DNA of 64,000 bases, taken from sequence record OK283619.1. One strand, given 5' to 3'. The stretch comes from Escherichia phage LPEK22. The notes beneath the pieces were generated by a model. It was not told the DNA's origin and ran no database searches. It saw nothing but the letters and a program-made list of their open reading frames with translations. Below, one piece after another: positions 23,075 through 42,612 of the stretch. The translations under genes were made by a program, and so were the position numbers. Numbering within the stretch: position 1 is the stretch's first letter; each line of letters opens with the position of its first letter.

Positions 23075-23163
23075 TGGCGGAAGGTGAAGGATTCGAACCT
23101 TCGGGGGCTAAAAGCCCCACTCGATTAGCAGTCGAGTCCCTTAAACCTCTCGGGCAACCTTCC
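23075..23163 (-). tRNA. tRNA-Ser (anticodon GCU), type II with long variable arm
   Basis: Hand fold of reverse complement: acceptor GGAAGGT/ACCTTCC, anticodon stem CTCGA/TCGAG, loop CUGCUAA, variable hairpin GGGGC-TTTTA-GCCCC, T-arm GAAGG-TTCGAAT-CCTTC, encoded CCA. Confidence 0.6.
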
Positions 23164-23989: not shown

Positions 23990-24065
23990 TGGCGACGATG
24001 ACAGGACTTGAACCTGCGACATACGATTTAACAGACCGCCGTTCTACCGACTGAACTACATCGTC
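23990..24065 (-). tRNA. tRNA-Asn (anticodon GUU)
   Basis: Hand fold: acceptor GACGATG/CATCGTC, D-arm GTTC-AGTCGGTA-GAAC, anticodon loop CUGUUAA, T-arm GCAGG-TTCAAGT-CCTGT, encoded CCA; close to E. coli tRNA-Asn. Confidence 0.6.
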
Positions 24066-24480
24066 TCTATTCTTACTTTCGTAAACACTCTTTATTCTGC
24101 ATGAAGATCCAGGGCAGGATCATAACGATCGTAAGTTTTTGGATGAGACCCGTTCTTGATGCTCACCATCCGACCTTCCCAACTAGCGCGAATTCTGTTG
24201 GAAATCACCACCCAAATATTCTTCATAATATAGAACCCTTCAACTATGTTTATTCGCTTCGATCGCCCTTAATTGGGCGTCCGCGTCAGCTTTGGTGCCA
24301 TGTGTCCCAAGAACATTAGTCTTGGTGTGGTCAAGGACAACCCACTTATCGCCTCGCTTTTCAACAAACTCAACAATCTCTTTGTTGTCGGTAGCGAGAC
24401 CATCCCACTCAGTAAGAAAATCACCGAACGTTTTCATCATACTCACCAATTGTTTATTGAACAACTGGTTTATTTAGTGG

Positions 24481-24556
24481 TGACCCTGGCTGGACTTGAA
24501 CCAGCGACCAATCGATTATGAGTCGACTGCTCTAACCACTGAGCTACGGGGCCAAA
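24481..24556 (-). tRNA. tRNA-Met (anticodon CAU; Met or Ile2)
   Basis: Hand fold: D-arm GCTC-AGTGGTTA-GAGC, anticodon stem GTCGA/TCGAT with loop CUCAUAA, T-arm GCTGG-TTCAAGT-CCAGC, encoded CCA. Confidence 0.6.
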
Positions 24557-26144
24557 ATTTGGCGGGGTCTGAGGATTTTCACCTCTCCTTGCTGGTTTGG
24601 CCGCCAGCCTGTTCTCTCTGGGGACTCGCTGTCCGGACAGCTGTCCCTTAAACTATCGCCCCATAATTTATTGTGTGACCAACCAAGGTCTCTCAACCCT
24701 TTATCCCGTTTGTGCATGATCAGTTCATGCATGCCTGTTTGTGCGCCTCACGGCAACGCGCTTCTGTGGGTCTTTGGCTTGCACCGTAGCCTCACCACAG
24801 GCGTTTATTTTTCCAGGGCTTTCCACTTGCAAGTCTTGACCATACAGGGATACGGGCTTGCAAGATCGGGTTGGACACAACTTTGATGGCTCTGGTACTA
24901 AAGATCCCGCGTCACCCATAGACATGGTTTATGAAATCCAGAGCCATCAAAGTTGCAACCAAATGTCACAACTCGCATTCAATGTCTTCGTCACACCGAA
25001 TACTTGTCCTCTATCGCTCGGACCAAACGAGGCTGGCCGACAGAAACATAACACCACTCATCACTAGAGCGAGGATGTGGTTGATGGCCACGATGTAATG
25101 TCTCTATCGAAGAGTGATCACACTTGTCAGATGATCACTGTTTTGCGAACTCGAGAATACTGCGCCTGTCTCGGGTTTCCCCTTAGTTCGGCCTCTCATT
25201 GTTCGTCTAGTCAGGGAGCTACCCTTGATGACCAGCTTATATTGAGATCTTCGCCAGCGCCCACCAGTGTCTAGAATGTGTAGGCGTCGAGGTCTGCAAG
25301 GCATTGCCCTATTTCATACAACGCTCTCTCAAGTACGCAAATCGAAGTTCTCTGGGCTTAACAGGTTCGACCCAACATGTTGTATATCGCCTAACTTACT
25401 CATGGGACGGCCACTTCTGTGTACAGACCTTGAGGGTTAAAAGATATACCCAGAGAACTTCGATTTGCGTTGCCCTTCACTTGCCAGAGATCAGGGCAAT
25501 TGGTAAGACTTCGCTCACATCTTAGAGGACACTGCACGGGACTCGAACCCGCCACGAACATTTGGCGCCAAATGCTTCCACCTGTCAATGTCCTCTAAGA
25601 TGTGGAGCCGTTTTAGGGAGTCGAACCCAAATGCTTGGCCAGCGCTGACCTTACATCCCATCTGACTTAGGCAACCCACCTCTGCCTACTCAGGAGCTTA
25701 TCCCCTTTGGACAGTCAGATATAACGGCTTTGGGATTGGAGGAAGGACTCGAACCTTCTCATGTACGCTCCTGATTTCTCAGAAGTAGTCTGCTCCCATC
25801 GACCTATTAAGTACACGCTCCGCTCATTGTCGGCGGGAGATTATTAATCACACCCTCCCGCCTATTTTAGTGCGCCGAATTTTGTTATGAGGAATCGGAA
25901 GACCTCACTGGTGTATGGCTATTAAGCTACTGCCAGGAACGTGTTATCATTAGCGATTATTTTTGTGGTCAGTTTCTAAAAACCCGCAAAGTCACGCACA
26001 ACGAAAACGAAAACCTGTTTGAGTCCTAAACCTACCTGTCTTGGTCTCACATCGCTATGAGTGGCCAGGACTCAAACAGCTTGCCGTTCAGTGAGTTAAC
26101 TATACTTTGTAACCCGTTATTGATAAAACCTTTTATTTTTGTTG

Positions 26145-26872: not shown

Positions 26873-27442
26873 TTATTTTAACACTTCTAACTTCACAACA
26901 CGACGCAGAAGGTAAACATATTCGCCAGCAGCTTCATGCGTCATATAATGGGTAGAAGGTGTGGAATGATTGTTCTGGGTTTCTTTTAATCCAACACGTT
27001 CTACCCAACCATTAATAGAGTTCCCATAGAAACCGATAATCGCGCCAAAATAAATGCGCTGGCTTTCTGGCTCTAAAACATAGTTGACAGTGAAGCAAAT
27101 ATCAGAACGAATAGACTCCAGTTTCATACCAACACGACCTTCGGAGAATTCGTTACGAACATATAAATGACGGAAACGATCGCGCCGCGCTTGTGATGAT
27201 TCTTCCAATTCTTGTCGAAGTGAAGAAGTTACGTCAATATTAAATGAAAATGTTGGATTTTGTAAATCAGAACGGGCCAACTCTAACGCAGATTCAACAA
27301 CGCGACGGAAATTGATACTTTTACCTGTCAGGCGTTTCACTTCATCTGTGATTGTTCCAAAAGGGATTTTCGTGGCGCGTTCCCCTTCGTATTTTGCCAA
27401 TAAAGGAATAATGTGTTTCATGATTGCTGTGTTAATGTGCAT
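26873..27442 (-). CDS. hypothetical protein
   Basis: 189-aa minus-strand ORF isolated between the tRNA cluster and the late operon. Confidence 0.5.
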   Translation of the reverse strand: MHINTAIMKHIIPLLAKYEGERATKIPFGTITDEVKRLTGKSINFRRVVESALELARSDLQNPTFSFNIDVTSSLRQELEESSQARRDRFRHLYVRNEFSEGRVGMKLESIRSDICFTVNYVLEPESQRIYFGAIIGFYGNSINGWVERVGLKETQNNHSTPSTHYMTHEAAGEYVYLLRRVVKLEVLK

Positions 27443-27758
27443 TCCGGAGCCTCACCGAATTGATTAAATGTCTCCATTATTATATTGGAGATACGTTTAT
27501 TGAATATAAACGCAGGAATGGCCAATAAAATAATGACAGTGATTATTAATAGGTAAAAACTACTTTTCTACAACATCAAGAAACTGTATCTTAACGCGGT
27601 GCCCTTCGAGTTGTGAGTGTTAACGAACAACGAGAAGCAGCCTCCATGGCTGTGGAATGGGACTGCCTGTCAAGGCGGTGTTACGAGCGAGGGCGTCAGC
27701 CCCCTCGCGAGTATATTCGAATAAATTAAACGCGCGCGAGCGTTTTGATTCCCGTTGG

Positions 27759-27766
27759 CTAAATAT
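27759..27766 (+). promoter_or_regulatory. late promoter motif CTAAATAT
   Basis: CTAAATAT about 40 nt upstream of the first late gene; same motif recurs before other late genes. Confidence 0.45.
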
Positions 27767-27805
27767 CTTCAACACCATATTCAAACTCAGGTGATGGAGA
27801 TTATC

Positions 27806-29587
27806 ATGGCCACGCAAACAGTTCCTTCACTCGACGTCAGAGCATTTGAATACATTATTAAACAGCGAATGAAAGCTGATCCCACCTTTAAAGATTATGA
27901 CTTTGAAGGTTCTGGTCTTAGTGCGATTATTCGTTTGTTGGCATCTGACGCGAACGCCATAGCCTTTATGCAAAACATGCTTAATGGTGAAGGCCATTTG
28001 AAGACAGCAAATCAACGTTCAAACGTCGGTTTATCTGCTGCATTTCTTTCCTACACGCCTGACAACTATCGGGCAGCATACATGTATGTCAACATCAAAG
28101 TTACGCCTTATGACGCCAGCACAGCCCCCAATGAGATCATCATGGATCGGCGCGTAATGTTCGTTGGGGCAAAAGACGGCAGTTCCTACAACTTTACTGT
28201 TGAGAAACCAGTGTCGGCAACGTTGACTGCAGACGGTTATTACATGTTCAACAATGTAAAGTTGGTACAGGGGAATTGGTTGTACAAGACATATGATGTT
28301 GAAGGAAGCGCGATTTCAACATATACGATTCCTTCTGGGAATGTCGATATCAATCATATGGTCGTGCAAGTACAAGAATCAGAGTCTTCCGACGTTTCGA
28401 CGACATATCAACGTTACAACAGTCCATTTGATCTGAGCCAATATGCCTACCTGTATTTCGTAGAATTGGGTATTGATGGTCTGTATGTGTTTGAATTCGG
28501 AGATGGTTATCTTTCGCGTCGAGTAGAAGATGGGAACGTCATATTCCTTCAATACTTAGAAACTTCTGGTGCTGATGGGAATGATATTACAAGCCTGTCA
28601 TCAGCGTCATCCATAGGCGGGTTTAACCAGGTCGACGTAGAATTGGTTTCCGAACGTAGCGCAGGTGGAGACGATCCGGAATCTATTGAGGACACTAAAC
28701 GGTTGGCTCCTTTAGCTTATCAGGCTGATGGTGCGGCGGTTACAGAAACAGATTATGGTGTATTGACTGAAAGGTTATTCTCCAACGTCTCCCGAGCTAA
28801 ATCATATGGTGGTGACACGCTGTCTCCTCCTGATTCTGGCTATGTTTACATCGCTGTTATACCTTCTGTTGGTGAGACACTTTCGGACGCTGAGAAGGCC
28901 GATATCGTTGCTGCTCTGGACAAGTATAATGTGGGATCTATTACCCCCAAAGTGGTAGACTCCGAGATCACATATATCCAAGTCTCAACGACTATATTTT
29001 GGGATCCTACTTCTACAGTCTACGTTGAAGAACAGATGAAAGTTGTTGTTGGAAACAGTATCGTTAAATGGGGTGAAAATAATCTCGGCGGATTTGACCA
29101 ATTGTTTGACAAAGAAATATTGCAGGAAGCAATTACAAAAATGGAACGTTCTATCAACTCGAATATTACTTCAGTTGGTTATAAACGCCATTTTAAACCT
29201 GATTATGGAGTCTTAGACAGTTTCACATTCAGTTATGGACGAAGTATCAAACCTGGTTCTGTGAAAATAACGGGGTTCAAACCGCTTCCTGCCGAGGTGG
29301 ATTTCACTTACTACATGCGCGACAATAATGGCGATTTGAACATGTATAAAGTGAATAACAATGACACGACAAAAGAGTTTTTAGTTCAAAAAACAGGGGT
29401 TGTGGATTATGCAAATGGGGTTGTAGACCTTCAGCAGATCACGGTCTCTAACTATAACCCTGAAGGGGTGACCATAGTCGTGTTACCGGATGGACTGAAC
29501 CAGAACATACAGGCTACACAAAACCAAGTATTCAAGATTGGTGATGTGGTTGTTACGCCAGAGGTGCGCTATGTCCAAAGATCTTAA
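27806..29587 (+). CDS. baseplate wedge protein (gp6/Baseplate-J-like), putative
   Basis: 594 aa from ATG 27806 (GGAG RBS; MATQTVPSLD...); first gene of the late block; size and position fit a baseplate wedge subunit; no motif verified. Confidence 0.45.
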   Translation: MATQTVPSLDVRAFEYIIKQRMKADPTFKDYDFEGSGLSAIIRLLASDANAIAFMQNMLNGEGHLKTANQRSNVGLSAAFLSYTPDNYRAAYMYVNIKVTPYDASTAPNEIIMDRRVMFVGAKDGSSYNFTVEKPVSATLTADGYYMFNNVKLVQGNWLYKTYDVEGSAISTYTIPSGNVDINHMVVQVQESESSDVSTTYQRYNSPFDLSQYAYLYFVELGIDGLYVFEFGDGYLSRRVEDGNVIFLQYLETSGADGNDITSLSSASSIGGFNQVDVELVSERSAGGDDPESIEDTKRLAPLAYQADGAAVTETDYGVLTERLFSNVSRAKSYGGDTLSPPDSGYVYIAVIPSVGETLSDAEKADIVAALDKYNVGSITPKVVDSEITYIQVSTTIFWDPTSTVYVEEQMKVVVGNSIVKWGENNLGGFDQLFDKEILQEAITKMERSINSNITSVGYKRHFKPDYGVLDSFTFSYGRSIKPGSVKITGFKPLPAEVDFTYYMRDNNGDLNMYKVNNNDTTKEFLVQKTGVVDYANGVVDLQQITVSNYNPEGVTIVVLPDGLNQNIQATQNQVFKIGDVVVTPEVRYVQRS

Positions 29588-31664: not shown

Positions 31665-34600
31665 ATGGCCAACAAACCAACACAGCCTCTTTTCCCTTTG
31701 GGTTTAGAAACTTCTGAGTCTTCGAACATAAAAGGCTTCAACAACTCCGGCACTATTGAGCATTCCCCTGGTGCCGTAATGACATTTCCTGAAGATACTG
31801 AAGTTACAGGTCTTCCATCTTCTGTACGTTACAATCCTGATAGTGATGAATTTGAAGGTTATTACGAAAACGGTGGTTGGTTGTCTTTGGGGGGCGGTGG
31901 AATACGCTGGGAAACGCTCCCTTACGCTCCCTCTAGCAATTTGTTAGAAGGTCGTGGTTATCTCATTAATAATACCACAGGGACATCTACAGTGGTTCTC
32001 CCTTCCCCTACGCGTATTGGGGATTCCGTTACTATTTGTGATGCTTATGGGAAATTTGCCACTTACCCATTGACCGTGTCTCCTTCTGGAAATAATTTGT
32101 ATGGCTCCACTGAAGACATGGCTATAACAACTGATAACGTATCAGCAACGTTCACTTGGTCTGGACCTGAACAAGGTTGGGTTATCACATCCGGCGTCGG
32201 TCTTGGCCAAGGCCGTGTCTACAGTCGTGAAATCTTTACACAAATTTTGGCGTCTGAAACAAGTGCTGTCACTCTCAATACTCCACCAACAATCGTGGAC
32301 GTGTATGCTGACGGAAAACGTCTTGCGGAATCCAAATATTCACTAGATGGGAATGTAATCACTTTCAGTCCTTCTTTGCCAGCCAACACAGAACTTCAGG
32401 TGATTGAATATACTCCGATTCAATTGGGTAATGGCGGTGGTTCTGGTTCTTCTACGATTACCTGGGTCTATAATGGGGGTTCAGCGATTGGCGGTGAAAC
32501 CGAAATCACGTTAGACATCGTTGTTGATGATGTTCCGGCCATTGATATAAACGGAAGTCGCCAGTATAAAAATCTGGGGTTCACATTCGATCCATTAACC
32601 AGTAAAATCACTCTTGCGCAAGAACTGGATGCAGAGGATGAAGTTGTTGTAATTATCAATGGAACGCCAAACATCTATAATCAAATTGATTATACTTTGC
32701 GGGAAGTGGCTCGTGTAACCAATGTTAAAGATACAGAGGTCGTTTATTTTAGTGTTGGTGCTGTGTTAAGCGGGTATAAAGTTATCTACGATAAAATAAC
32801 ACAGAGATCATATTTTATTCCAGAGTTACCGACTGGAACCACGGCAGTCAGCCTTAGTTCTTCGGCTGTGCTTGTACATTCTGCTGGTAGTGTTGATCTG
32901 GGCGCATTAGCTGTATCTCGTGAAGAATATGTTACCTTGGCTGGGACATTTGATTCTGGTGCTGTCATCAATACTAAAAATGAATTACTCACCCATACTG
33001 ATGGAAAGTATCGTTGGGATGGTACACTTCCTAAAACTGTAGCTGCTGGCTCAACACCTGCAACAACTGGAGGCGTTGGTTCGGGAGCGTGGTTGAGTGT
33101 TGGTGATGCCACTGCCCGCCAGTGGGTAGCTAATAATTATATCAATAGTAAATTCGAGAAGTTTGGGTCTTTCTTGCAAGGTTCAGTTTTAACCACCAAC
33201 GAGCAAGCTCTTGTTGATTCAAGTGGTCTTTTCTGGGTTAAATATGGTGCTATACAAAGTGGTGGTTATACAGTAGCGCCGGGAACTGTTCCAGACTATC
33301 CCGATTTTTACTGTGTTGGATATTTAACAGATTATGATTGGCAGTCTGTTACAAACTGGGGTGCTGATAACAACTATTCTATCGCAGATAAGATCGGTGT
33401 AGACGCGGTCGATGCTATAAACCTCGCAGGTTATCATGCGGAGAAACGTGCGGAACTATTCGGATCCCAGCAAGTTGTCATGGTTCCTGCTGGCACTTAT
33501 CTGTTGGATAAAACGACTCTTGTGGAAGGCACGGCGCATGGTCTGACTATTTATCGTAATCAGGAAGTTATGATTTTTCTTCGCAACAACGTTACTTTCA
33601 TCGGCGATGGCGACGCAACGTTACTGTATGTTGCCGATGGTGTTGTTGAGCGCAATAAGGAAAACGGGGGCACTAAAGGCTTTGTAGTTTTCGGTGATGG
33701 TATTCGTGAAATTCAGAACGCATATGTCCACGATATGCTAATTGATGAAAATGGTGACAATAACCTTGTCCCGCCATTGAACTGGTCTGGAGCACAAGCT
33801 CATTGTCCAGCAGTAGCTTGTTACGAAGGTAGTAATGGTGTGACTGTTTCTGGAGTTAACGTCAAGAATGCTCCTGGTGCAAACGTAATGGTATTCCAGG
33901 AAGCTCAGGCAGCGTTCAACAGCTACAATACGCGTGTAGAGAATTGCAACTTCTATCGCGTTGCTGACGCTGTGACTGGAAACAGTAACCTAATAGACCA
34001 CTCATCAATAAGAATTCATTCCGATGGCTACGTTATAAATAACGTTAAATGTATCCAGCCAACCATGTCAGACATGTGTACGGTATTTGAGTGTCATGGT
34101 AATGGGATCGTTGATGGATGCATCACCAAAAAAGCTCGCTACCCATTCCTGAAGGCTAACGACGGTGCTACATCGACATCTATAGTCACCTTCACAAATA
34201 ACGTCTGTGAGGACGCAGGTAGTGCTTTGGTTCTGGATACCGTACCTAACGTTACAACTGTTGCCAGATTTATTGGTAATACTGTAACGCTACGATCAGA
34301 AAAGCAAGTTATCGGGTATCCTAATACTGCGGCATTCACAACACAGCAGCCGTCTGTTTTGTCATCTGACCCAACCACTATTAATGCAATTATTTACTCT
34401 GCAAATAATAACATATTGCAAAAAAACAGAGCCGCAGATTGGACAACTGAACAAAAAGCTGCAAACGTTGCTTATGACCTGGACTATTTCAAAGAAGTTG
34501 TTAGTGAAAATAACACTTTCTCAGGTTTTTGGGGGTGTGTTCGCTTGGGTAAACAAAAAACAGGTGCTACTTTCAACAGCAATGACTCTTTTGTCTCTTG

Positions 34601-35168
34601 CGGGACCAACGGTTCACCTCAATTATCAGACAACACAGCCATAAGGTTTACCAATAAATTTGCCAACGATTATCTTGTTCACCTTGATGAAATGCATATT
34701 AAATGGAATATGACAAAATGTCAGTTTGGTGGTGTCCTGGGTTTATTGCAACAAGCAGCAGGAGTGACTGTTGGTGTTGTGCAATTCACTGCTGATATTA
34801 AAACAGATAGATGGATGCATCCAGCGCTTGGGATAGCTCCACTATCCGTACAGGATTACTACTTCAACATTGATGTATACAGTGATGTGAATACCAGTGA
34901 ACCTTTATACGGATACGCTGGTATTCATGGGCAAATTAATGTTGACTCGCCAACTCAACCATATGTTAAACAATTTTACAAATACAAACCAAACACCCAG
35001 AATGGATGGTGGTTTAAAGGCATTTTAGCAACTGACACAACTTCTGTTCCTGACAGGCCTTTTGGTAATGCGTCTGGTGACAGATATGATGTTATTGCTG
35101 GGGCATCAAATATTTTCGGGTATCGACATAATGGTACAACATGGGATGCAATGAAATTTACATCATAG
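31665..35168 (+). CDS. tailspike protein, long form (N-terminal anchor region + shared module + C-terminal catalytic/receptor-binding domain)
   Basis: 1167 aa; shares the module VKDTEVVYFSVGAVLSGYKVIYDKITQRSY...KYRWDGTLPK...GAWLSVGDA with the three downstream genes; Gly/Asn-rich C-terminal region. Confidence 0.75.
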   Translation: MANKPTQPLFPLGLETSESSNIKGFNNSGTIEHSPGAVMTFPEDTEVTGLPSSVRYNPDSDEFEGYYENGGWLSLGGGGIRWETLPYAPSSNLLEGRGYLINNTTGTSTVVLPSPTRIGDSVTICDAYGKFATYPLTVSPSGNNLYGSTEDMAITTDNVSATFTWSGPEQGWVITSGVGLGQGRVYSREIFTQILASETSAVTLNTPPTIVDVYADGKRLAESKYSLDGNVITFSPSLPANTELQVIEYTPIQLGNGGGSGSSTITWVYNGGSAIGGETEITLDIVVDDVPAIDINGSRQYKNLGFTFDPLTSKITLAQELDAEDEVVVIINGTPNIYNQIDYTLREVARVTNVKDTEVVYFSVGAVLSGYKVIYDKITQRSYFIPELPTGTTAVSLSSSAVLVHSAGSVDLGALAVSREEYVTLAGTFDSGAVINTKNELLTHTDGKYRWDGTLPKTVAAGSTPATTGGVGSGAWLSVGDATARQWVANNYINSKFEKFGSFLQGSVLTTNEQALVDSSGLFWVKYGAIQSGGYTVAPGTVPDYPDFYCVGYLTDYDWQSVTNWGADNNYSIADKIGVDAVDAINLAGYHAEKRAELFGSQQVVMVPAGTYLLDKTTLVEGTAHGLTIYRNQEVMIFLRNNVTFIGDGDATLLYVADGVVERNKENGGTKGFVVFGDGIREIQNAYVHDMLIDENGDNNLVPPLNWSGAQAHCPAVACYEGSNGVTVSGVNVKNAPGANVMVFQEAQAAFNSYNTRVENCNFYRVADAVTGNSNLIDHSSIRIHSDGYVINNVKCIQPTMSDMCTVFECHGNGIVDGCITKKARYPFLKANDGATSTSIVTFTNNVCEDAGSALVLDTVPNVTTVARFIGNTVTLRSEKQVIGYPNTAAFTTQQPSVLSSDPTTINAIIYSANNNILQKNRAADWTTEQKAANVAYDLDYFKEVVSENNTFSGFWGCVRLGKQKTGATFNSNDSFVSCGTNGSPQLSDNTAIRFTNKFANDYLVHLDEMHIKWNMTKCQFGGVLGLLQQAAGVTVGVVQFTADIKTDRWMHPALGIAPLSVQDYYFNIDVYSDVNTSEPLYGYAGIHGQINVDSPTQPYVKQFYKYKPNTQNGWWFKGILATDTTSVPDRPFGNASGDRYDVIAGASNIFGYRHNGTTWDAMKFTS
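32700..33125 (+). repeat. shared tailspike N-terminal module, copy 1
   Basis: DNA/protein similarity to 35325-35750 and 40360-40790; approximate coordinates. Confidence 0.6.
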
Positions 35169-35271: not shown

Positions 35272-37368
35272 ATGATTTCTCAATTCAATCAACCACGCGG
35301 CTCCACTTCCATAGAAGTTAACAAACAATCTATCGCTCGAAATTTCGGTGTCAAAGAAGACGAAGTCATTTATTTCACTGTCGGTATTGATCTCAGCGGA
35401 TTTAAAGTAATTTATGATGAGTCTACCCAACGGGCTTATTCTCTTCCTTCAGGTATTGTTTCAGGAACGACTGCGATAAGTCTGAACGAACAAGCCATCC
35501 TTACTCATTCTTCTGGCTCTGTTGATCTCGGGGAATTAGCAGTAAGCCGCGAAGAATATGTGACTTTACCTGGTTCTTTTAATTTCGGCCATACTATTAA
35601 TGTGAAAAATGAACTTCTTGTTCACGATGATGAAAAATATCGATGGGATGGTGCATTACCTAAAGTTGTTCCTGCTGGTTCAACTCCAGCATCAACTGGT
35701 GGCGTTGGTTTAGGTGCTTGGGTTAGTGTTGGTGATGCTGCATTTAGGCAGGAAGCTAATAAGAAATTCAAATATTCAGTAAAGTTATCTGATTATTCTA
35801 CATTACAGGATGCAGCGACAGCAGCCGTAGATGGATTGCTTATTGATGTTGACTACACTTTTACTGCAGATGAGAATGTAGATTTTAGCGGTAAAGTTTT
35901 AATCATTGAATGCAAAGGAAAATTCATTGGCGATGGTATGTTGGTTTGGAATGGTTTGGGTGCGGGCTCAGTAATTAAGAAACCGCACATGCATACTAAA
36001 ACTACGCCGTATACTGTTTACCGATTCGATGCAAACGGTAATTGGGTTACAGACCCAACACAAGTTCTGGCATCTGTTCAGCAGCGTTTGGATGTTGGAT
36101 ATAAGCCAAATATTAACGATTTAGATATTTGGGACGACCTTCCTGATAATGTAAAAAATCAGGTTGCTGGTGCTACTTTGCGAATAATGAGCGGCGATAA
36201 TATCATCGTAGAGAACCCAGAAGCTACATTTGGTGGTTATCTATTTACTTTATGTAATAGGATTCTTGTTAAGAATCCACGCAATTTTATTGCTTTGGAA
36301 TCGGGCATTACATTTGAGAACCATCATACAACTGCATGGGGTACTGGCAACTGGGTTGTTGGGGGTGAGATAAAATATGGCTCTGGTTCCGCTGTACTGT
36401 TCATTCGCAATGATGGTGGTACAGACCATGATGGTGGAGTAAGGGATTTAATCTCATACCGTGTTGGAGAATCAGGTATTAAAACCTATCAGAACGAAAT
36501 TGGAGGTCGTTCAGCCAGGAACTACCGTTTAGTGTTCGACAATATAACTACAATCCAGTGTTACTATGATGGTATTGATGTTAATGCTGACACAGGGTCG
36601 CCAACTGAACGTGTGGATGACTACTCACTCGCAGAGTATCCATGGTTCCACCTACCTACTCAACATATCATCCGTAATATTATTACTCGTGATTGTATGG
36701 GGATTGGTGCTTGGTGGGATGGTCAGAAAAATATTATTGATAATGTTGTTACTTATGAGGCCCATAAGGAAGGCGTCTTCGATAGGGGTACTAACAATGA
36801 TATTACTAACATTACTGTAGTAGGTGCGAATAAGGATTTAACTAACCTAAATCAGCTTACCTGTGAGGGAGGTAGTAGACTTCGTGGTATTAACATCCAT
36901 GCATATACTACACAAGGTTACGCTATATACGCTCCGTCTTCAGAAGTAAGTAATGTTTCCTGTGCTGGTTCCGGTACTAAGAAATTACTATGTACCTATA
37001 TAAGCGATATTCAGGGAGGTAATATCAATGTTCAGCATAGTGCCAACCAAATGACACTTGCAATGCAACCTGCTATGGGTGGTACTACAAACCCATCTTT
37101 GCTTATGACGGCAGATTGCCAGGTTGCTACACCAGGGGGTGAGGCAAGTATTGTCAAGCTTTCGGCAATTCAGGAGGGTGTACGTGTAGGTGAGTTTCAG
37201 CTTAACCGCTTAGGCTTTAAGCATATGAGTATACCTGCTGCCCCTTTACAATTACCAGAGAGCGCTCTGGAACATAATTCATCTATAGGATTCTTCTTCG
37301 GAAGTGACGGAGCATTGAGGTTGCTTGCTAAAAAACCAGATGGAAGTTATGTAACATACACACTTTAA
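35272..37368 (+). CDS. tailspike protein, short form (shared module at extreme N-terminus)
   Basis: 698 aa; begins directly with VKEDEVIYFTVGIDLSGFKVIYDESTQRAYSLP...KYRWDGALPK...GAWVSVGDA; distinct C-terminal domain. Confidence 0.75.
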   Translation: MISQFNQPRGSTSIEVNKQSIARNFGVKEDEVIYFTVGIDLSGFKVIYDESTQRAYSLPSGIVSGTTAISLNEQAILTHSSGSVDLGELAVSREEYVTLPGSFNFGHTINVKNELLVHDDEKYRWDGALPKVVPAGSTPASTGGVGLGAWVSVGDAAFRQEANKKFKYSVKLSDYSTLQDAATAAVDGLLIDVDYTFTADENVDFSGKVLIIECKGKFIGDGMLVWNGLGAGSVIKKPHMHTKTTPYTVYRFDANGNWVTDPTQVLASVQQRLDVGYKPNINDLDIWDDLPDNVKNQVAGATLRIMSGDNIIVENPEATFGGYLFTLCNRILVKNPRNFIALESGITFENHHTTAWGTGNWVVGGEIKYGSGSAVLFIRNDGGTDHDGGVRDLISYRVGESGIKTYQNEIGGRSARNYRLVFDNITTIQCYYDGIDVNADTGSPTERVDDYSLAEYPWFHLPTQHIIRNIITRDCMGIGAWWDGQKNIIDNVVTYEAHKEGVFDRGTNNDITNITVVGANKDLTNLNQLTCEGGSRLRGINIHAYTTQGYAIYAPSSEVSNVSCAGSGTKKLLCTYISDIQGGNINVQHSANQMTLAMQPAMGGTTNPSLLMTADCQVATPGGEASIVKLSAIQEGVRVGEFQLNRLGFKHMSIPAAPLQLPESALEHNSSIGFFFGSDGALRLLAKKPDGSYVTYTL
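35325..35750 (+). repeat. shared tailspike N-terminal module, copy 2
   Basis: See copy 1; approximate coordinates. Confidence 0.6.
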
Positions 37369-40299: not shown

Positions 40300-42612
40300 A
40301 TGAACGAGATGTTTAGTCAAGGTGGTAAGGGTTCAACTGGAATCCTAACCAACAAACAAGCAGTAGCTAGACACTTTGGGGTTAAGCAATCTGAGATTGT
40401 TTACTTTTCGGTTGGTGTAGATTTAGGGGGGTATAAAGTTATCTATGACAAGGAAACGCAAAGAGCTTATTCCTTACCTGCTGGTATTGCTTCTGGTACT
40501 ACTGCCGTCAGTCTTAATACTGCTGCTGTACTTGTACATTCAGCAGGTTCTGTAGACTTAGGTGCATTAGCTGTATCTCGTGAAGAATACGTAACCTTAC
40601 CTGGTTCGTTTGATTCTGGCTCTACGCTTAACGTTAAAAATGAATTACTCACTTATACAGATGGTAAGTATCGCTGGGATGGAGCATTACCTAAAGCTGT
40701 CCCTGCCGGTTCAACTCCTGCATCAACTGGTGGTATTGGTCTTGGCGCGTGGGTTAGTGTTGGTGATGCTTCTTTGAGAACACAACTGGCAAACGGCAAT
40801 GGCTCGTTGATTGGAATTCACCCGCAGGGAACGCTAAATAATGTATTAACTGTGCGCACACCTGAACAGTACAATGCGGTAGGCGACGGAATAGATGACG
40901 ATACTTCAAAATTAAAAGAAATGCTTTCAGACATAAACAACGTTCCTGAAACACTTCCTGATGCTGCGGCTGTAAACTCGTACATGGAGCAAGTAGCAGT
41001 AAAAATTAACCTGACCAAGTTATACCGATTCACAGAGACGCTATACATACCCCCAGGTGTTTCAATTGAAATGCCAGCACCAAACTTTTTTACTCGTGAG
41101 TGTAAGCAAGGATTGTTTTATGACCCAGTAGATAAGAATACAGCAGCAATCAGCTTAATGGTGTACCGTAAACAACCTGATGGTTCATACAAACTCAATA
41201 AAGATGTAGATTATTATCCTACTGGGTTAGATATTGATAATGGGTACGCTGTAACATGTGCCAGAAAAATTGATATTAGTAACCTTAACCTGATTACAGC
41301 ACCAGGTGTAAAGGTTGGTGTTAAATGGATAGGTGGGGCAGGTTGCACTACAAAAGGGTTATCTATTGGGGAGAATACAGGGAGCGATATTACAACAGCA
41401 AGACTGCCAAGAGTAGGATTGTTGCAGTCAGCATCATGGGGTTCTGTTCATGAAAATCTACGCATCCTGTATAAAACTCAGGGCGCAGTGTTCATTGACT
41501 CTAATGGCGGTGCTACTGTAAACAATGCTTACATTTCCCGCCTTGGTAATACCAATGGTGAGCTAGAACAAGCGGTGTATAAACCAGCAGGGTTTACTGA
41601 GGTAGGTGATGTTGCCATCACTCAGTTTGCAGGTTCAGAGGTTAAGTTTAATAGCCCAATCATCGAACAAGCATCATTCGACTTTGTTCACGCTGGCCGG
41701 GATACTGATTCCTACGGTTTATTTATGGTTGATAAACCCCACATTGAATCATCTGGTGGGAAGAAAAAACATAGTTTCTACCTGATCAATACCAGTTCAG
41801 ATGTTACGTTGTCAGGGGTAGGTCTTTCCGGACAAGACCCTGATCTAGATAGTATGTACTTCCTTAAAAACTGCCCAGAAACTGCCCGAAATGTTGTCAG
41901 AGGACAAATGCCAGTAGGTGGTTTAAAACTCGTTAGAGGTACTGGTAACTACCCTACATTGGTACTCGACTGTACAAATATGGGAAGTCAATTCCAATTT
42001 GGGGAAGTTGGTGACATTTTCTATATCAAAGATGTTGTTGGTGTAAAAGCAGACACTCTATACATAGATCCTGTAAATGGTAATAACTACAACTGGGGAT
42101 TTAACGGAACCAAACCTATAAGAGAGCTACTTAATATTTCAAAGTTATGCCAGCTATTCAAGTGCAAAAGAGTTTATCTTAACCCAGGTGAGATAGCCAT
42201 TACCTCTAACACGGAGTTGCCGATGGTTAATTTTGAAGGTACTGGTAGCTTGAAGGCAAATTCTGGTAGTAGCTTCCTTATCAAAACCGGTGGGACATTA
42301 TCATTAATTGGGCTTGCTGGTATATCTACAGATGGCGGCCATATGTTTAGAGTCTCCACCACGGAAAAAGTAAACATACATACTAACTGCCCAGTGGATT
42401 CTGGTGCGGCCTATGTTGTACTAAGTGAGATTCAGGGTAATATTGAATACAGGCAATTATTCTATTCTGTAAATTGTTCTAAGTATGTAGGTGCAACAGC
42501 TGGACAAACTATCGCTGGTGTCATGGTTAAGACAGCGTCAAGACCGACAGGAATAGATGCTGATCCAGTTGATGGTAATACTTCTCTAACCTATAAAATT
42601 ATAGGATCATAG
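40300..42612 (+). CDS. tailspike protein, short form (shared module at N-terminus)
   Basis: 770 aa; N-terminus VKQSEIVYFSVGVDLGGYKVIYDKETQRAYSLP...KYRWDGALPK...GAWVSVGDA; distinct C-terminal domain. Confidence 0.75.
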   Translation: MNEMFSQGGKGSTGILTNKQAVARHFGVKQSEIVYFSVGVDLGGYKVIYDKETQRAYSLPAGIASGTTAVSLNTAAVLVHSAGSVDLGALAVSREEYVTLPGSFDSGSTLNVKNELLTYTDGKYRWDGALPKAVPAGSTPASTGGIGLGAWVSVGDASLRTQLANGNGSLIGIHPQGTLNNVLTVRTPEQYNAVGDGIDDDTSKLKEMLSDINNVPETLPDAAAVNSYMEQVAVKINLTKLYRFTETLYIPPGVSIEMPAPNFFTRECKQGLFYDPVDKNTAAISLMVYRKQPDGSYKLNKDVDYYPTGLDIDNGYAVTCARKIDISNLNLITAPGVKVGVKWIGGAGCTTKGLSIGENTGSDITTARLPRVGLLQSASWGSVHENLRILYKTQGAVFIDSNGGATVNNAYISRLGNTNGELEQAVYKPAGFTEVGDVAITQFAGSEVKFNSPIIEQASFDFVHAGRDTDSYGLFMVDKPHIESSGGKKKHSFYLINTSSDVTLSGVGLSGQDPDLDSMYFLKNCPETARNVVRGQMPVGGLKLVRGTGNYPTLVLDCTNMGSQFQFGEVGDIFYIKDVVGVKADTLYIDPVNGNNYNWGFNGTKPIRELLNISKLCQLFKCKRVYLNPGEIAITSNTELPMVNFEGTGSLKANSGSSFLIKTGGTLSLIGLAGISTDGGHMFRVSTTEKVNIHTNCPVDSGAAYVVLSEIQGNIEYRQLFYSVNCSKYVGATAGQTIAGVMVKTASRPTGIDADPVDGNTSLTYKIIGS
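40360..40790 (+). repeat. shared tailspike N-terminal module, copy 3
   Basis: See copy 1; approximate coordinates. Confidence 0.6.

Follow-up and report, generated by a model that had tools for sequence, protein, structure and literature searches.

What lies in the divergent spacer between the start of a minus-strand gene (27442) and the start of gp6 (27806) in Escherichia phage LPEK22? We analysed this locus within a 64,000-nt stretch of record OK283619.1 (the window), which is ~100% identical to Se-B and Det7 and belongs to the Kuttervirus lineage. The initial annotation had singled out positions 27600–27750 as a GC-rich segment carrying two imperfect palindromes, and the sequence and coordinates it gave for this segment agree with the window. 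Its GC-richness is borne out, with 53.6% G+C compared to a window mean of 44.6%; in the left half of this spacer, which is AT-rich, the value is ~30%. The best 100 nt (from 27610) reach 60% G+C, matched by only 0.39% of 100-nt windows, and the best 60 nt (from 27648) reach 66.7%, matched by 0.06% of windows. The extent proposed for the segment needs correction: it falls within, and is the core of, a larger element of ~215 nt (27545–27758) that begins at ~27545.

As the annotation had it, the segment is located just upstream of the first CTAAATA (27759–27765, plus strand), the late-promoter motif of gp6, which is a downstream neighbour outside the folded core. CTAAATA has 15 matches in the window for 7.5 expected, and nine of them lie 16–47 nt upstream of plus-strand late ORF starts. 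The sequence CTAAATATCTYCAACACCATAT at the gp6 late promoter is unchanged across genera, and a late promoter is annotated at the corresponding position of LIMEstone1.

Conservation and paralogous copies

Positions 27543–27700 are near-invariant in Kuttervirus, Agtrevirus, Limestonevirus and Taipeivirus, in a spacer whose flanks diverge, and the element is recognisable in two genera beyond these four. Conservation in relatives had been suggested as a check on the segment; across the Ackermannviridae genera compared, it stands far above its flanks. Three paralogs were found in each genome examined, upstream of gp6 (copy A), gp5 (copy B) and gp45 (copy C), that is, ahead of the sliding-clamp gene gp45 and of two baseplate genes. 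The GC-rich segment is the core of one of these three structured paralogs, which are promoter-linked and conserved across Ackermannviridae. A covariance model run on a whole Kuttervirus genome equivalent returned exactly three copies (129.5, 71 and 23.1 bits), and phiMAM1 likewise carries three. The model misses copy B of phiMAM1 or phiEa2809, and the Vibrio phages. A repeat search found no second copy inside the window; the paralogs are located outside it. When viral contigs were searched with a pattern combining hairpin P4 and the box CGCGCGAG (see below), most matches were GC-rich coding false positives and the genuine additional ones were third copies. One match to an ‘Enterococcus phage’ could have pointed to a wider host range, an idea that we dropped since the contig is a mislabelled Kuttervirus.

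These paralogs do not agree with the specific association with an early/late boundary put forward initially, since they precede gp5, where there is no strand switch, and the early gene gp45. Copies A and C occupy divergent spacers, and copy B has no divergent promoter. Information on the requirement for the copies is provided by selz_497L, a viable genome-reduced mutant in which copy B is absent and P4 of copy A is damaged by an 11-nt deletion (27702–27712) removing its 3′ arm. Both are therefore non-essential in the laboratory.

The element matched no curated RNA family of Rfam 15. At the gathering threshold, only three tRNAs were detected in the window, and a permissive scan of 27400–27850 gave chance matches only (E = 3.9 and 8.7); scans of the B copies and of one divergent copy A returned nothing relevant. 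The region carries no annotation in Det7, CBA120, Vi01, Menlow or LIMEstone1. We found no Rfam family, annotation or paper describing the element, and nothing relevant in the literature searched on Ackermannviridae transcriptomes or small RNAs. Finally, a search for host mimicry gave zero matches among 5,426 Escherichia coli genomes.

Promoter-like layout and folding of the plus strand

The left part of the element has the layout of a sigma-70-like promoter on the plus strand. A UP-element-like A-tract, AAAAA (27555–27559), is located just upstream of a weak −35-like hexamer, TTTTCT (27564–27569), which is followed by a sigma-70-like −10 hexamer of the form TAnnnT, TATCTT (27587–27592). This layout is common to 16/16 copies compared from six genera, as judged by sequence. 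In all of them an A-tract lies 3–8 nt upstream of the −35-like hexamer, and the spacer is 17 bp in 15 copies and 16 bp in the remaining one. The −35-like hexamer varies among copies A, B and C (TTTTCT, TTTTCA, TTGTCA, TTCTCA, TTTCTT, TTGGAC), as does the −10-like hexamer (TATCTT, TATCGT, TATGCT, TACAGT, TATGGT, TATAAT, TAATAT, TACTAT, and CATGCT in one copy), but in every copy compared position −11 is A and position −7 is T. The position of the −10-like hexamer would place a transcription start near 27599; the corresponding predicted starts in Det7 lie at ~21,195 (plus strand) for copy C and ~67,400 (minus strand) for copy B. A candidate recurring promoter motif, box1 (CTTTTCWA), showed no enrichment in the window (8 matches for 6.5 expected).

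Both strands of a 154-nt stretch were folded. The plus strand reached −57.7 kcal/mol (z −2.6) and the minus strand −47.6 kcal/mol (z −2.2), each better than shuffled sequences. The G·U and G·A pairs of the element function on the plus strand only; the U·G pair of P3, for example, becomes a C·A mismatch on the opposite strand. Because of these G·U and tandem G·A pairs, together with the fold more stable by 10 kcal/mol, the plus strand is favoured.

Hairpin P1 (27604–27637), part of the minimum free energy (MFE) fold, pairs CUUC-GA-GUUGU-GA-G with C-GA-ACAAC-GA-GAAG across a UGUUAA loop and includes two tandem G·A mismatches. All 10 Watson–Crick pairs are preserved in all A copies, one of them changing from C-G to U-A. 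Compensatory changes occur in CRW-SP2 (UUUC/GAAA and GUUAU/AUAAC), and further compensatory variants were observed in phiMAM1, phiEa2809 and the C copies. In P2 (27638–27652; CAGCC/GGCUG with a UCCAU loop), every pair is preserved in 15 sequences, with A-U replaced by U-A between copies A and B. The P2 loop bases CCAU (27644–27647) form a pseudoknot (27644–27660) with AUGG (27657–27660): all four positions pair in 15/15 sequences, and copies A and B of Taipeivirus have CCCU/AGGG, replacing A-U by C-G (11:4). P3 (27662–27679; ACUGCC/GGCGGU, including the U·G pair, with a UGUCAA loop) keeps six of six pairs with a variable loop; C-G becomes U-A in Menlow copy B and U·G becomes C·G in two sequences. 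RNAalifold extended P3 by UGG/UUA. We preferred the pseudoknot and dropped this extension because it breaks in Taipeivirus, where the pseudoknot covaries.

P4 (27683–27712) has a base of AC-GA-GC and GC-GA-GU with tandem G·A; this base, ACGAGC/GCGAGU, becomes AUGAGC/GCGAAU in copy B of Agtrevirus and Limestonevirus. Above it, Kuttervirus alone has a GC-rich extension (27689–27706), which corresponds to the first palindrome of the initial annotation. Elsewhere, in other genera and other copies, there is only a loop, GAA, GUA, AAC or UUCA. This first palindrome, CGAGCGAGGGCGTCAGCCCCCTCGCGAG (27684–27711), is a genuine hairpin found in the MFE fold, and Kuttervirus strains differ in its loop only (GCGTCAGC, GCTTTAGC, GCGCCAGC and GCTTCAGC). 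The second palindrome, CGCGCGCGAGCG (27731–27742), fared less well: it is located within a 6-bp hairpin followed by TTTTGATT, but the 3′ tail that contains it had no folding advantage over shuffled sequence (z = 0.05). This weak terminator-like hairpin (27728–27750; AAACGC, loop GCGCGA, GCGUUU, then UGAUU) is restricted to Kuttervirus and is not present in other genera. Conservation at this place in those genera concerns a sequence box, CGCGCGAG (27733–27740), lying inside the Kuttervirus hairpin; the box occurs once in the window and is kept in A copies and in the B copies of phiMAM1 and phiEa2809. Between P4 and this hairpin lies an AT-rich linker (27713–27730) containing the palindrome TATTCGAATA; an AT-rich stretch of 20–60 nt follows P4 in every copy, with TATAAT-like runs in several. 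Copies B and C have at the place equivalent to 27728–27750 a clear hairpin, P5, with a U-rich, interrupted tail. In copy B, P5 shows covariation (GGAAGC/GCUUCC, GGAUGC/GCAUCC and GGCGGC/GCCGCC). Copy A has no conserved terminator, its Kuttervirus-only hairpin folding like shuffled sequence.

With the structure so defined, 99.7% of cells pair, compared to 31–62% in a control with partners slid. Five pairs changed on both sides, one in each of five helices, pseudoknot included. The covariation score was reached by 0/500 shuffles, although with this tool related sequences may beat shuffles without any structure. The core being nearly invariant, covariation is thin and amounts to one pair per helix.

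GC-GNA-GC loops and Py-GA-Pu tandem mismatches belong to the classic motifs of hyperstable DNA. In most copies P4 reads C-GA-GC-GAA-GC-GA-G, that is, a d(GCGAAGC)-type mini-hairpin flanked by Py-GA-Pu tandem G·A, and the Py-GA-Pu tandem sheared G·A motif is repeated in P1. These are structural motifs rather than a gene family; they imply unusual hairpin stability, as DNA too, and are silent on function. REP-like hairpin clusters of Bradyrhizobiaceae carry the same hairpin core at their tips, a recurrence which hints at a general single-stranded DNA hairpin module that replication proteins would recognise or that would resist them.

Candidate functions of the element

The initial annotation had considered a regulatory structure or a small RNA. 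This is partly supported: the segment is non-coding and conserved and has compensatory helices, a pseudoknot and a promoter-like layout; ‘small RNA’ and ‘regulatory’ are what we infer. Two features expected of a small-RNA gene were found, a same-orientation promoter directly upstream, as predicted from its hexamers, and a compensatory structure on one strand. We tentatively favour, at somewhat less than even probability, an early-transcribed structured small RNA. Its transcription, 3′ end, protein binding and function are inferred as follows. Host sigma-70 RNA polymerase would initiate near 27599, using the UP-like A-tract, the weak −35 TTTTCT, the 17-bp spacer and TATCTT. The first ~115 nt would fold into P1 with its two tandem sheared G·A, P2 engaged in an H-type pseudoknot, P3, and P4, whose tandem G·A would lie beneath a GNA-type loop or, in Kuttervirus, beneath the GC-rich extension. 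Transcripts of copies B and C would end at the covarying hairpin and U-rich tail, giving an RNA of ~110–130 nt. That of copy A may stop at the weak hairpin 27728–27750 (~150 nt) or read through towards gp6. The repeated C-GA-G ... C-GA-G hairpin modules could then serve as a recognition surface for a putative protein partner, whose binding would mediate the action of the RNA.

Short, structured, non-coding RNAs made by host polymerase have precedents in T4 RNA C and RNA D (species 1 and 2), which form a pair, and in lambda 6S/oop, 6S being a ~190-nt RNA produced just upstream of the late genes; for the present element these properties are predicted from sequence. To our knowledge, the function of RNA C and RNA D is not yet known. 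Neither the T4 nor the lambda RNAs have sequence or model similarity to the element, nor any counterpart to its tandem G·A hairpins and pseudoknot. The T4 RNAs are moreover processed from a tRNA cluster, whereas the copies here would have their own promoter and lie 3 kb away from the tRNAs.

The main rival reading takes the same architecture at the DNA level, as an R-loop-type replication origin. Primer RNA made from the promoter would stay on the template, and the displaced plus strand would fold into very stable mini-hairpins that keep the R-loop open. The unwinding element would be the AT-rich stretch after P4, and the three copies would be the three origins of the genome. We consider this unlikely, though with an appreciable probability. 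The T4 origins oriF and oriG are ~100 bp long, combine a promoter with a sigma-70-type −10 and an AT-rich unwinding element and act through R-loops; oriE needs an early promoter, and active T4 origins lie near transcriptional divergence points and a skew shift (PMC3016281). Like oriF(uvsY), oriG(34) and oriE, the element has a promoter-like layout and a conserved AT-rich stretch, occurs as dispersed copies, lies near divergence in copies A and C and is individually dispensable, the loss of copy B being expected to be tolerated given recombination-dependent replication. The phage also encodes RNase H, UvsW, UvsX, UvsY and a helicase loader. The cumulative GC skew of the window has its minimum at ~27 kb, but this is explained just as simply by the switch in gene orientation, and the plus-strand GC skew (+0.02 to +0.32) and purine bias (48–59%) are only modest. 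The T4 origins share no common sequence motif and no conserved folded core. Here, the AT-rich stretch is separated from the promoter by ~100 nt of conserved GC-rich hairpins, in contrast to the T4 unwinding elements, which directly follow the promoter. An H-type pseudoknot and a near-invariant P2/P3 block are features seen more typically in a folded RNA, and, unlike T4 origins, copies B and C finish in covarying hairpins with U-rich tails resembling RNA-releasing terminators. One observation goes the other way. The 5′ arm of P1 lies against the −10 hexamer, or overlaps it, in each of the four C copies (TAATAT directly followed by ACGAG), so that a start ~7 nt downstream would exclude the outer P1 stem from the RNA. 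Such an overlap, possible for a DNA hairpin and impossible for an RNA one, fits a DNA-level hairpin better. That the three elements are the Ackermannviridae origins, in a variant of the T4 R-loop mechanism whose displaced non-template strand is locked open by hyperstable DNA mini-hairpins (GNA loops, tandem sheared G·A), is a proposal that we regard as doubtful.

Other readings keep the element as a cis-acting signal or a gene. A nut-, put- or attenuator-like leader would set the choice between stopping at the next hairpin and reading through into gp45, gp5 or gp6. Its order of promoter, 110–190-nt structured RNA, hairpin and genes resembles lambda pR′–6S RNA–tR′ and nut sites. Kutter et al. 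raised the possibility that delayed-early genes are controlled by antitermination in these phages, which lack MotA and AsiA (PMC3184105). As in lambda nut (boxA and boxB) and HK022 put, a structured RNA would come right after an early promoter. Some copies have a boxA-like stretch after the predicted start: CGCUCUUA, which we take to be the lambda boxA consensus, is exact only in copy B of Agtrevirus and Limestonevirus, and the remaining A and B copies carry degenerate versions (CGCCUUUA, CCGUCUUA or UGCCCUUYGA). The stretch is kept neither in the C copies nor in copy B of phiEa2809. A lambda-type nut site would have a boxA in every copy, together with a boxB and an N-like protein. The loops are GAA, GUA, UUU, UGUUAA and similar, with no boxB-type GNRA-like pentaloop among them, and no N or Q homologue appears among the annotations of Det7 outside the window, which may be incomplete. 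Each downstream gene also has a promoter of its own, located after the element and before the start codon: a late promoter (CTAAATA or CATAAATA) for gp6 and gp5, and a sigma-70-like promoter for gp45, in phiMAM1 a strong TTGCAT-17-TATAAT. The late operons restart at their own late promoters after each terminator. We regard a leader as distinctly improbable. An operator or enhancer bound by protein as duplex DNA, serving the divergent or late promoters and conserved for its sequence, without a role for single-stranded structure, would account for the very high sequence-level conservation, for the boxes CGCGCGAG and AUUCCCGUU retained without pairing partner and for the location between two promoters. 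We nevertheless judge it very unlikely. P1, P2, P3, P4, P5 and the pseudoknot change in sequence while staying complementary, which duplex binding does not need; the CGAG...CGAG arms are direct, not inverted, repeats and therefore pair only via G·A mismatches on one strand; and copy B has no divergent promoter. A short coding gene is hardly credible. The ORF list made by program contains a 45-aa ORF (27657–27794, plus strand) and a 65-aa ORF (27620–27817, minus strand), but both lack a ribosome-binding site and their lengths and stop positions vary between genera. The 45-aa ATG ORF is missing in Agtrevirus and lies in a different frame in Taipeivirus, where ATG is replaced by AAG, and the minus-strand ORF begins inside gp6. 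The segment, with no conserved ORF, is non-coding as judged from these comparisons.

Further candidates were examined and set aside. Mini-hairpins with 3-nt loops recall N4-type hairpin promoters, in which a phage virion RNA polymerase uses a 5–7-bp hairpin with such a loop as promoter, but no giant virion RNA polymerase is annotated in Det7 14–110 kb, and no ORF of that size was found among those of the window. CCUCCAU of P2 could be an anti-Shine–Dalgarno sequence masking AUGGAG, the ribosome site of gp6; this was rejected because the both-side change in Taipeivirus gives a C·C mismatch and gp5 has no matching site. Mimicry of type I-E/I-F CRISPR repeats or of tRNA-Asn/tRNA-Asp anticodon loops (UGUUAA, UGUCAA) was dropped as well, since the loops are not conserved among copies.

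Implications for Ackermannviridae

Ackermannviridae such as ViI, CBA120, Det7, LIMEstone and their relatives are in wide use for biocontrol and therapy, and the signals for early transcription, the regulatory RNAs and the replication origins of these phages are as yet essentially undescribed. According to Kutter et al., early promoters could not be identified, and MotA and AsiA were not found (PMC3184105). The element offers a conserved early-type promoter layout, made of an A-tract, TTTTCN, 17 bp and TAnnnT. The tolerance of selz_497L indicates parts that could be removed in the engineering of such phages. The three-member folded family, located ahead of the sliding-clamp gene and of two baseplate operons, is more conserved than most proteins of the phage. 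If it acts as RNA, Ackermannviridae would gain their first regulatory RNA family; if its members are origins, they would be the first origins of this family of phages.

A conserved folded element in the spacer upstream of gp6

The GC-rich segment lies in a 363-nt spacer (27443-27805) between a minus-strand hypothetical gene (26873-27442, a Vi01_177 homologue) and a T4 gp6-like baseplate wedge gene that starts with an ATG at 27806. A 701-nt query round the segment matched 283 phage records, nearly all Ackermannviridae, with 100% identity to Salmonella phages Se-B and STP55 and 99.9% to Det7; the spacer alone matched 274. The initial annotation had reported a high GC content and two imperfect palindromes at 27600-27750, and this observation is real. 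The G+C content is 53.6% compared to a window mean of 44.6%; the richest 100-nt window reaches 60%, matched by just 0.39% of windows, and the richest 60-nt window 66.7%, matched by 0.06%. Since the left half of the spacer has only about 30% G+C, the contrast is sharp. Both palindromes were found in the sequence.

Compared with the separate genera Agtrevirus, Limestonevirus and Taipeivirus, the spacer shows 74-82% identity from about 27543 on (query position about 101). In a ten-genome alignment, 27543-27700 was near-invariant, the remaining spacer being freely variable and of unequal length.

The conserved unit is an element of about 215 nt on the plus strand (27545-27758), composed in order of an A-tract (AAAAA, 27555-27559), a -35-like hexamer (TTTTCT, 27564-27569), a 17-bp spacer, a -10-like hexamer (TATCTT, 27587-27592) and four hairpins. 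P1 (27604-27637, CUUC-GA-GUUGU-GA-G [UGUUAA] C-GA-ACAAC-GA-GAAG) carries two symmetrical tandem G.A mismatches. It is followed by P2 (27638-27652), whose loop CCAU (27644-27647) forms a pseudoknot with AUGG (27657-27660), by P3 (27662-27679) and by P4 (27683-27712, AC-GA-GC ... GC-GA-GU). Beyond P4 are an AT-rich linker, a CGCGCGAG box (27733-27740) within a weak hairpin, a C-rich stretch and the late-promoter motif CTAAATA at 27759. The first palindrome is the portion 27689-27706 of P4. In all other genera and paralogs the P4 loop has only 3-4 nt (GAA, GUA, AAC or UUCA) at this place, so the high GC is largely due to additional stem that Kuttervirus alone adds to the conserved base of the hairpin.

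P1 to P4 were recovered in the minimum-free-energy fold of 27597-27750, and the plus strand folded better than its complement by 10 kcal/mol. On the opposite strand a U.G pair of P3 becomes a C.A mismatch and every G.A pair a C.U or U.C mismatch. These strand-specific pairs, together with the better fold, indicate that the strand which folds is oriented like the genes downstream.

Structure statistics were obtained with a 15-sequence alignment of the copies upstream of gp6 (A) and gp5 (B). Standard pairs occupied 99.7% of cells, as against 31-62% when the 3′ partners were slid by 1-3 columns. Covariation is thin because the core barely varies: one pair has changed on both sides in each of five helices, pseudoknot included. 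The observed covariation score was reached by none of 500 column shuffles, a control which does not amount to a probability. All four Taipeivirus sequences, whether of copy A or copy B, have C-G instead of A-U at one pseudoknot pair; the alternative P3 extension proposed by RNAalifold is broken in these same sequences and was rejected. Compensatory P1 variants occur in CRW-SP2 (UUUC/GAAA, GUUAU/AUAAC), phiMAM1 (GUUC/GAAC), phiEa2809 (AUUUC/GAAAU, AUUUAU/AUAAAU) and the copies upstream of gp45 (AUAC/GUAU, AUUC/GAAU), with the tandem G.A steps unchanged throughout.

The element is unannotated in 11 records (Det7, CBA120, EspM4VN, RC-2014, Menlow, MK-13, ChubbyThor, May, Vi01, pertopsoe and LIMEstone1), and no description of it was found in Rfam 15, these annotated genomes or the searchable literature. 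An Rfam scan of the window returned three tRNAs only, and a permissive scan nothing further. These minus-strand phage genes, Ser(gct) 23075-23163, Asn(gtt) 23990-24065 and Met(cat) 24478-24553, form a cluster on the strand opposite to the element, 3 kb away from it. Beside them, an ORF-poor stretch carries a 25-nt inverted repeat (24871-24962, 88% complementary, 42-nt spacer).

Paralogs upstream of gp5 and gp45

With a degenerate pattern for the P2-P3 core, many Kuttervirus genomes matched twice. The second match, copy B, lies directly upstream of CATAAATA and in the orientation of gp5, the hub-lysozyme gene that follows. On its other side is the gp26 hub gene, with a small ORF and a strong terminator in between. 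In four genera it lacks P1, keeps P2, pseudoknot, P3 and P4, and gains a clear additional hairpin, P5, then UAUAAUAU. This P5 covaries (GGAAGC/GCUUCC, GGAUGC/GCAUCC, GGCGGC/GCCGCC).

A second pattern, P4 plus CGCGCGAG, revealed copy C, initially in phiMAM1 and May, upstream of the gp45 sliding-clamp gene; it is conserved in Kuttervirus, Limestonevirus, Taipeivirus and Miltonvirus. Its parts are P1, in which a GA-GC-UUU-GC-GA tip is nested, P4 and a P5 of 7-9 bp (AAAUGCC-GUCA-GGCAUUU plus AUUUAU). The A and B copies were used to build a covariance model. Searched against the window and Det7 14,000-110,000, together a whole genome, it gave exactly three matches: A (129.5 bits), B (71 bits) and C (23.1 bits, E = 1.4e-4). 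The element is therefore not specific to the early/late boundary, where the initial annotation had placed it. The proposal of a regulatory structure or small RNA was right in spirit: a conserved structured non-coding element is present, extending beyond 27600-27750.

Vibrio Ackermannviridae have a different, 780-nt spacer before gp6, still with a GGGGUGAGCGAAGCGAACCCC hairpin, and the covariance model detected nothing in their spacers. Within those of L049 (660-1452) and L050 (550-1446) are hairpins of the GGGGUGAGCGAAGCGAACCCC type, along with a stretch of about 190 nt duplicated in tandem; the late motif there is apparently CCTAAGTA, not CTAAATA.

Some records call for comment. In a metagenome contig (CYGL01000298.1, compared with CYGL01000502.1) the promoter and P1 of copy C are joined to P4/P5 of copy B and gp5, reflecting either paralog recombination or chimeric assembly over the repeat that they share, which is about 130 nt long. 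Product names round copy C in Det7 (20.7-23.6 kb) look shifted: minus-strand DET7_30 is named 'clamp loader subunit, T4 gp45-like', and DET7_31, labelled gp44-like, is the one aligning with gp45 of other genera. OR844944.1 and OR844942.1, named 'Enterococcus phage Efm 3-10' (UNVERIFIED_ORG), are actually Kuttervirus contigs, one with copy B and gp5, the other with a gp6 100% identical to the window.

Promoters, terminators and dispensability

An A-tract followed by a -35-like hexamer (TTTTCT, TTTTCA, TTGTCA, TTCTCA, TTTCTT, TTTCCT or TTGGAC) was present in all 16 copies compared. It is separated by 17 bp (16 bp in one copy) from TAnnnT; phiEa2809 copy B has TATAAT at this place and one copy CATGCT. 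Judged by sequence, the retention of A(-11) and T(-7) with drifting inner positions looks like a real -10 element, and the A-tract is similar to an UP element. Among the genes of Det7 is one for an RNA polymerase ADP-ribosylase. According to Kutter et al. (PMC3184105), informatics failed to locate the early promoters of these phages, which lack MotA and AsiA. The LIMEstone1 authors annotated late promoters beside copies A and B and a terminator upstream of B, leaving the element itself unannotated (PMC3296691). CTAAATA occurs 15 times in the window (7.5 expected), nine of them 16-47 nt upstream of plus-strand late ORFs, which fits the late promoter of these phages.

A strong terminator family (AAAACCCCGCTTCGGCGGGGTT) was observed on the plus strand at 35167, 37378, 42611, 55379 and 61735. 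In three cases CTAAATACCCC and another hairpin come no more than about 60 nt later, making the late tail-spike genes separate terminator-to-promoter units. Direct repeats of 91 nt and 277 nt with 65-78% identity (32724-33109, 35350-35738, 40381-40769) look like N-terminal modules common to consecutive tail-spike genes.

In selz_497L, the smallest viable genome-reduced SenALZ1 clone (MZ375358.1; PMC9825161), the upstream terminator and entire copy B are cleanly deleted, with the CATAAATA promoter and gp5 retained, and copy A carries an 11-nt deletion (27702-27712) removing the 3′ arm of P4. Both copies are intact in less reduced clones. Copy B and an intact P4 of copy A are thus nonessential in the laboratory, a limited conclusion: burst size was 194 compared to 622 for wild type, in a mutant with dozens of other deletions.

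Possible functions of the element

No curated RNA family in Rfam matches the element. Closest in type are the small stable RNAs of phages, whose function is unknown (T4 RNA C and D, lambda 6S), the R-loop origins of T4 and nut/put leaders; it has layout features common to each and belongs to none. From its sequence and predicted fold, it may well be a small early RNA. A co-oriented conserved promoter, a compact pseudoknotted fold, covarying hairpins that resemble terminators in copies B and C, and the lack of a conserved ORF all fit this reading, and the repeated C-GA-G modules would provide a protein-binding surface. A short ORF, given that none is conserved in the element, is highly improbable, and a duplex DNA operator is improbable.

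A cis-acting antitermination or attenuation leader seems quite unlikely: some copies have a boxA-like stretch, but it is not kept in all paralogs, there is no boxB and all downstream genes have promoters of their own. The main rival is a T4-type R-loop origin with the displaced plus strand folding, which we regard as possible if rather unlikely. Such origins combine a promoter with an AT-rich unwinding element, occur in several dispersed, dispensable copies and sit near transcriptional divergence (PMC3016281). Three points here count against an RNA and fit this origin instead. P1 starts 0-1 nt past the -10 in all C copies, so that a normal start site would exclude its outer stem from the RNA, and copy A has no conserved terminator. 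Moreover, GC-GNA-GC loops are a textbook example of a hyperstable DNA motif, as are Py-GA-Pu tandem mismatches.

Outside phages, the exact P1 core (CGAGTTGTGAG-N-CGA[A/G]CAACGAG) tips nested GC-rich hairpin clusters in one alphaproteobacterial MAG and, at a number of separate loci, in Bradyrhizobiaceae-like metagenome contigs (ccctctcccc..gggagagggtgg / core / ccgggtgagggg..cccctcacccgg). These clusters, absent from Rfam, look like REP-type repeats. They suggest that the double tandem-G.A hairpin is a reusable module, and weakly support a single-stranded-DNA role.

Whether as the small early RNA that we favour or otherwise, the element represents a new family that is clean and testable, in a group of phages with applied uses, with a non-trivial chance that it marks the replication origins.
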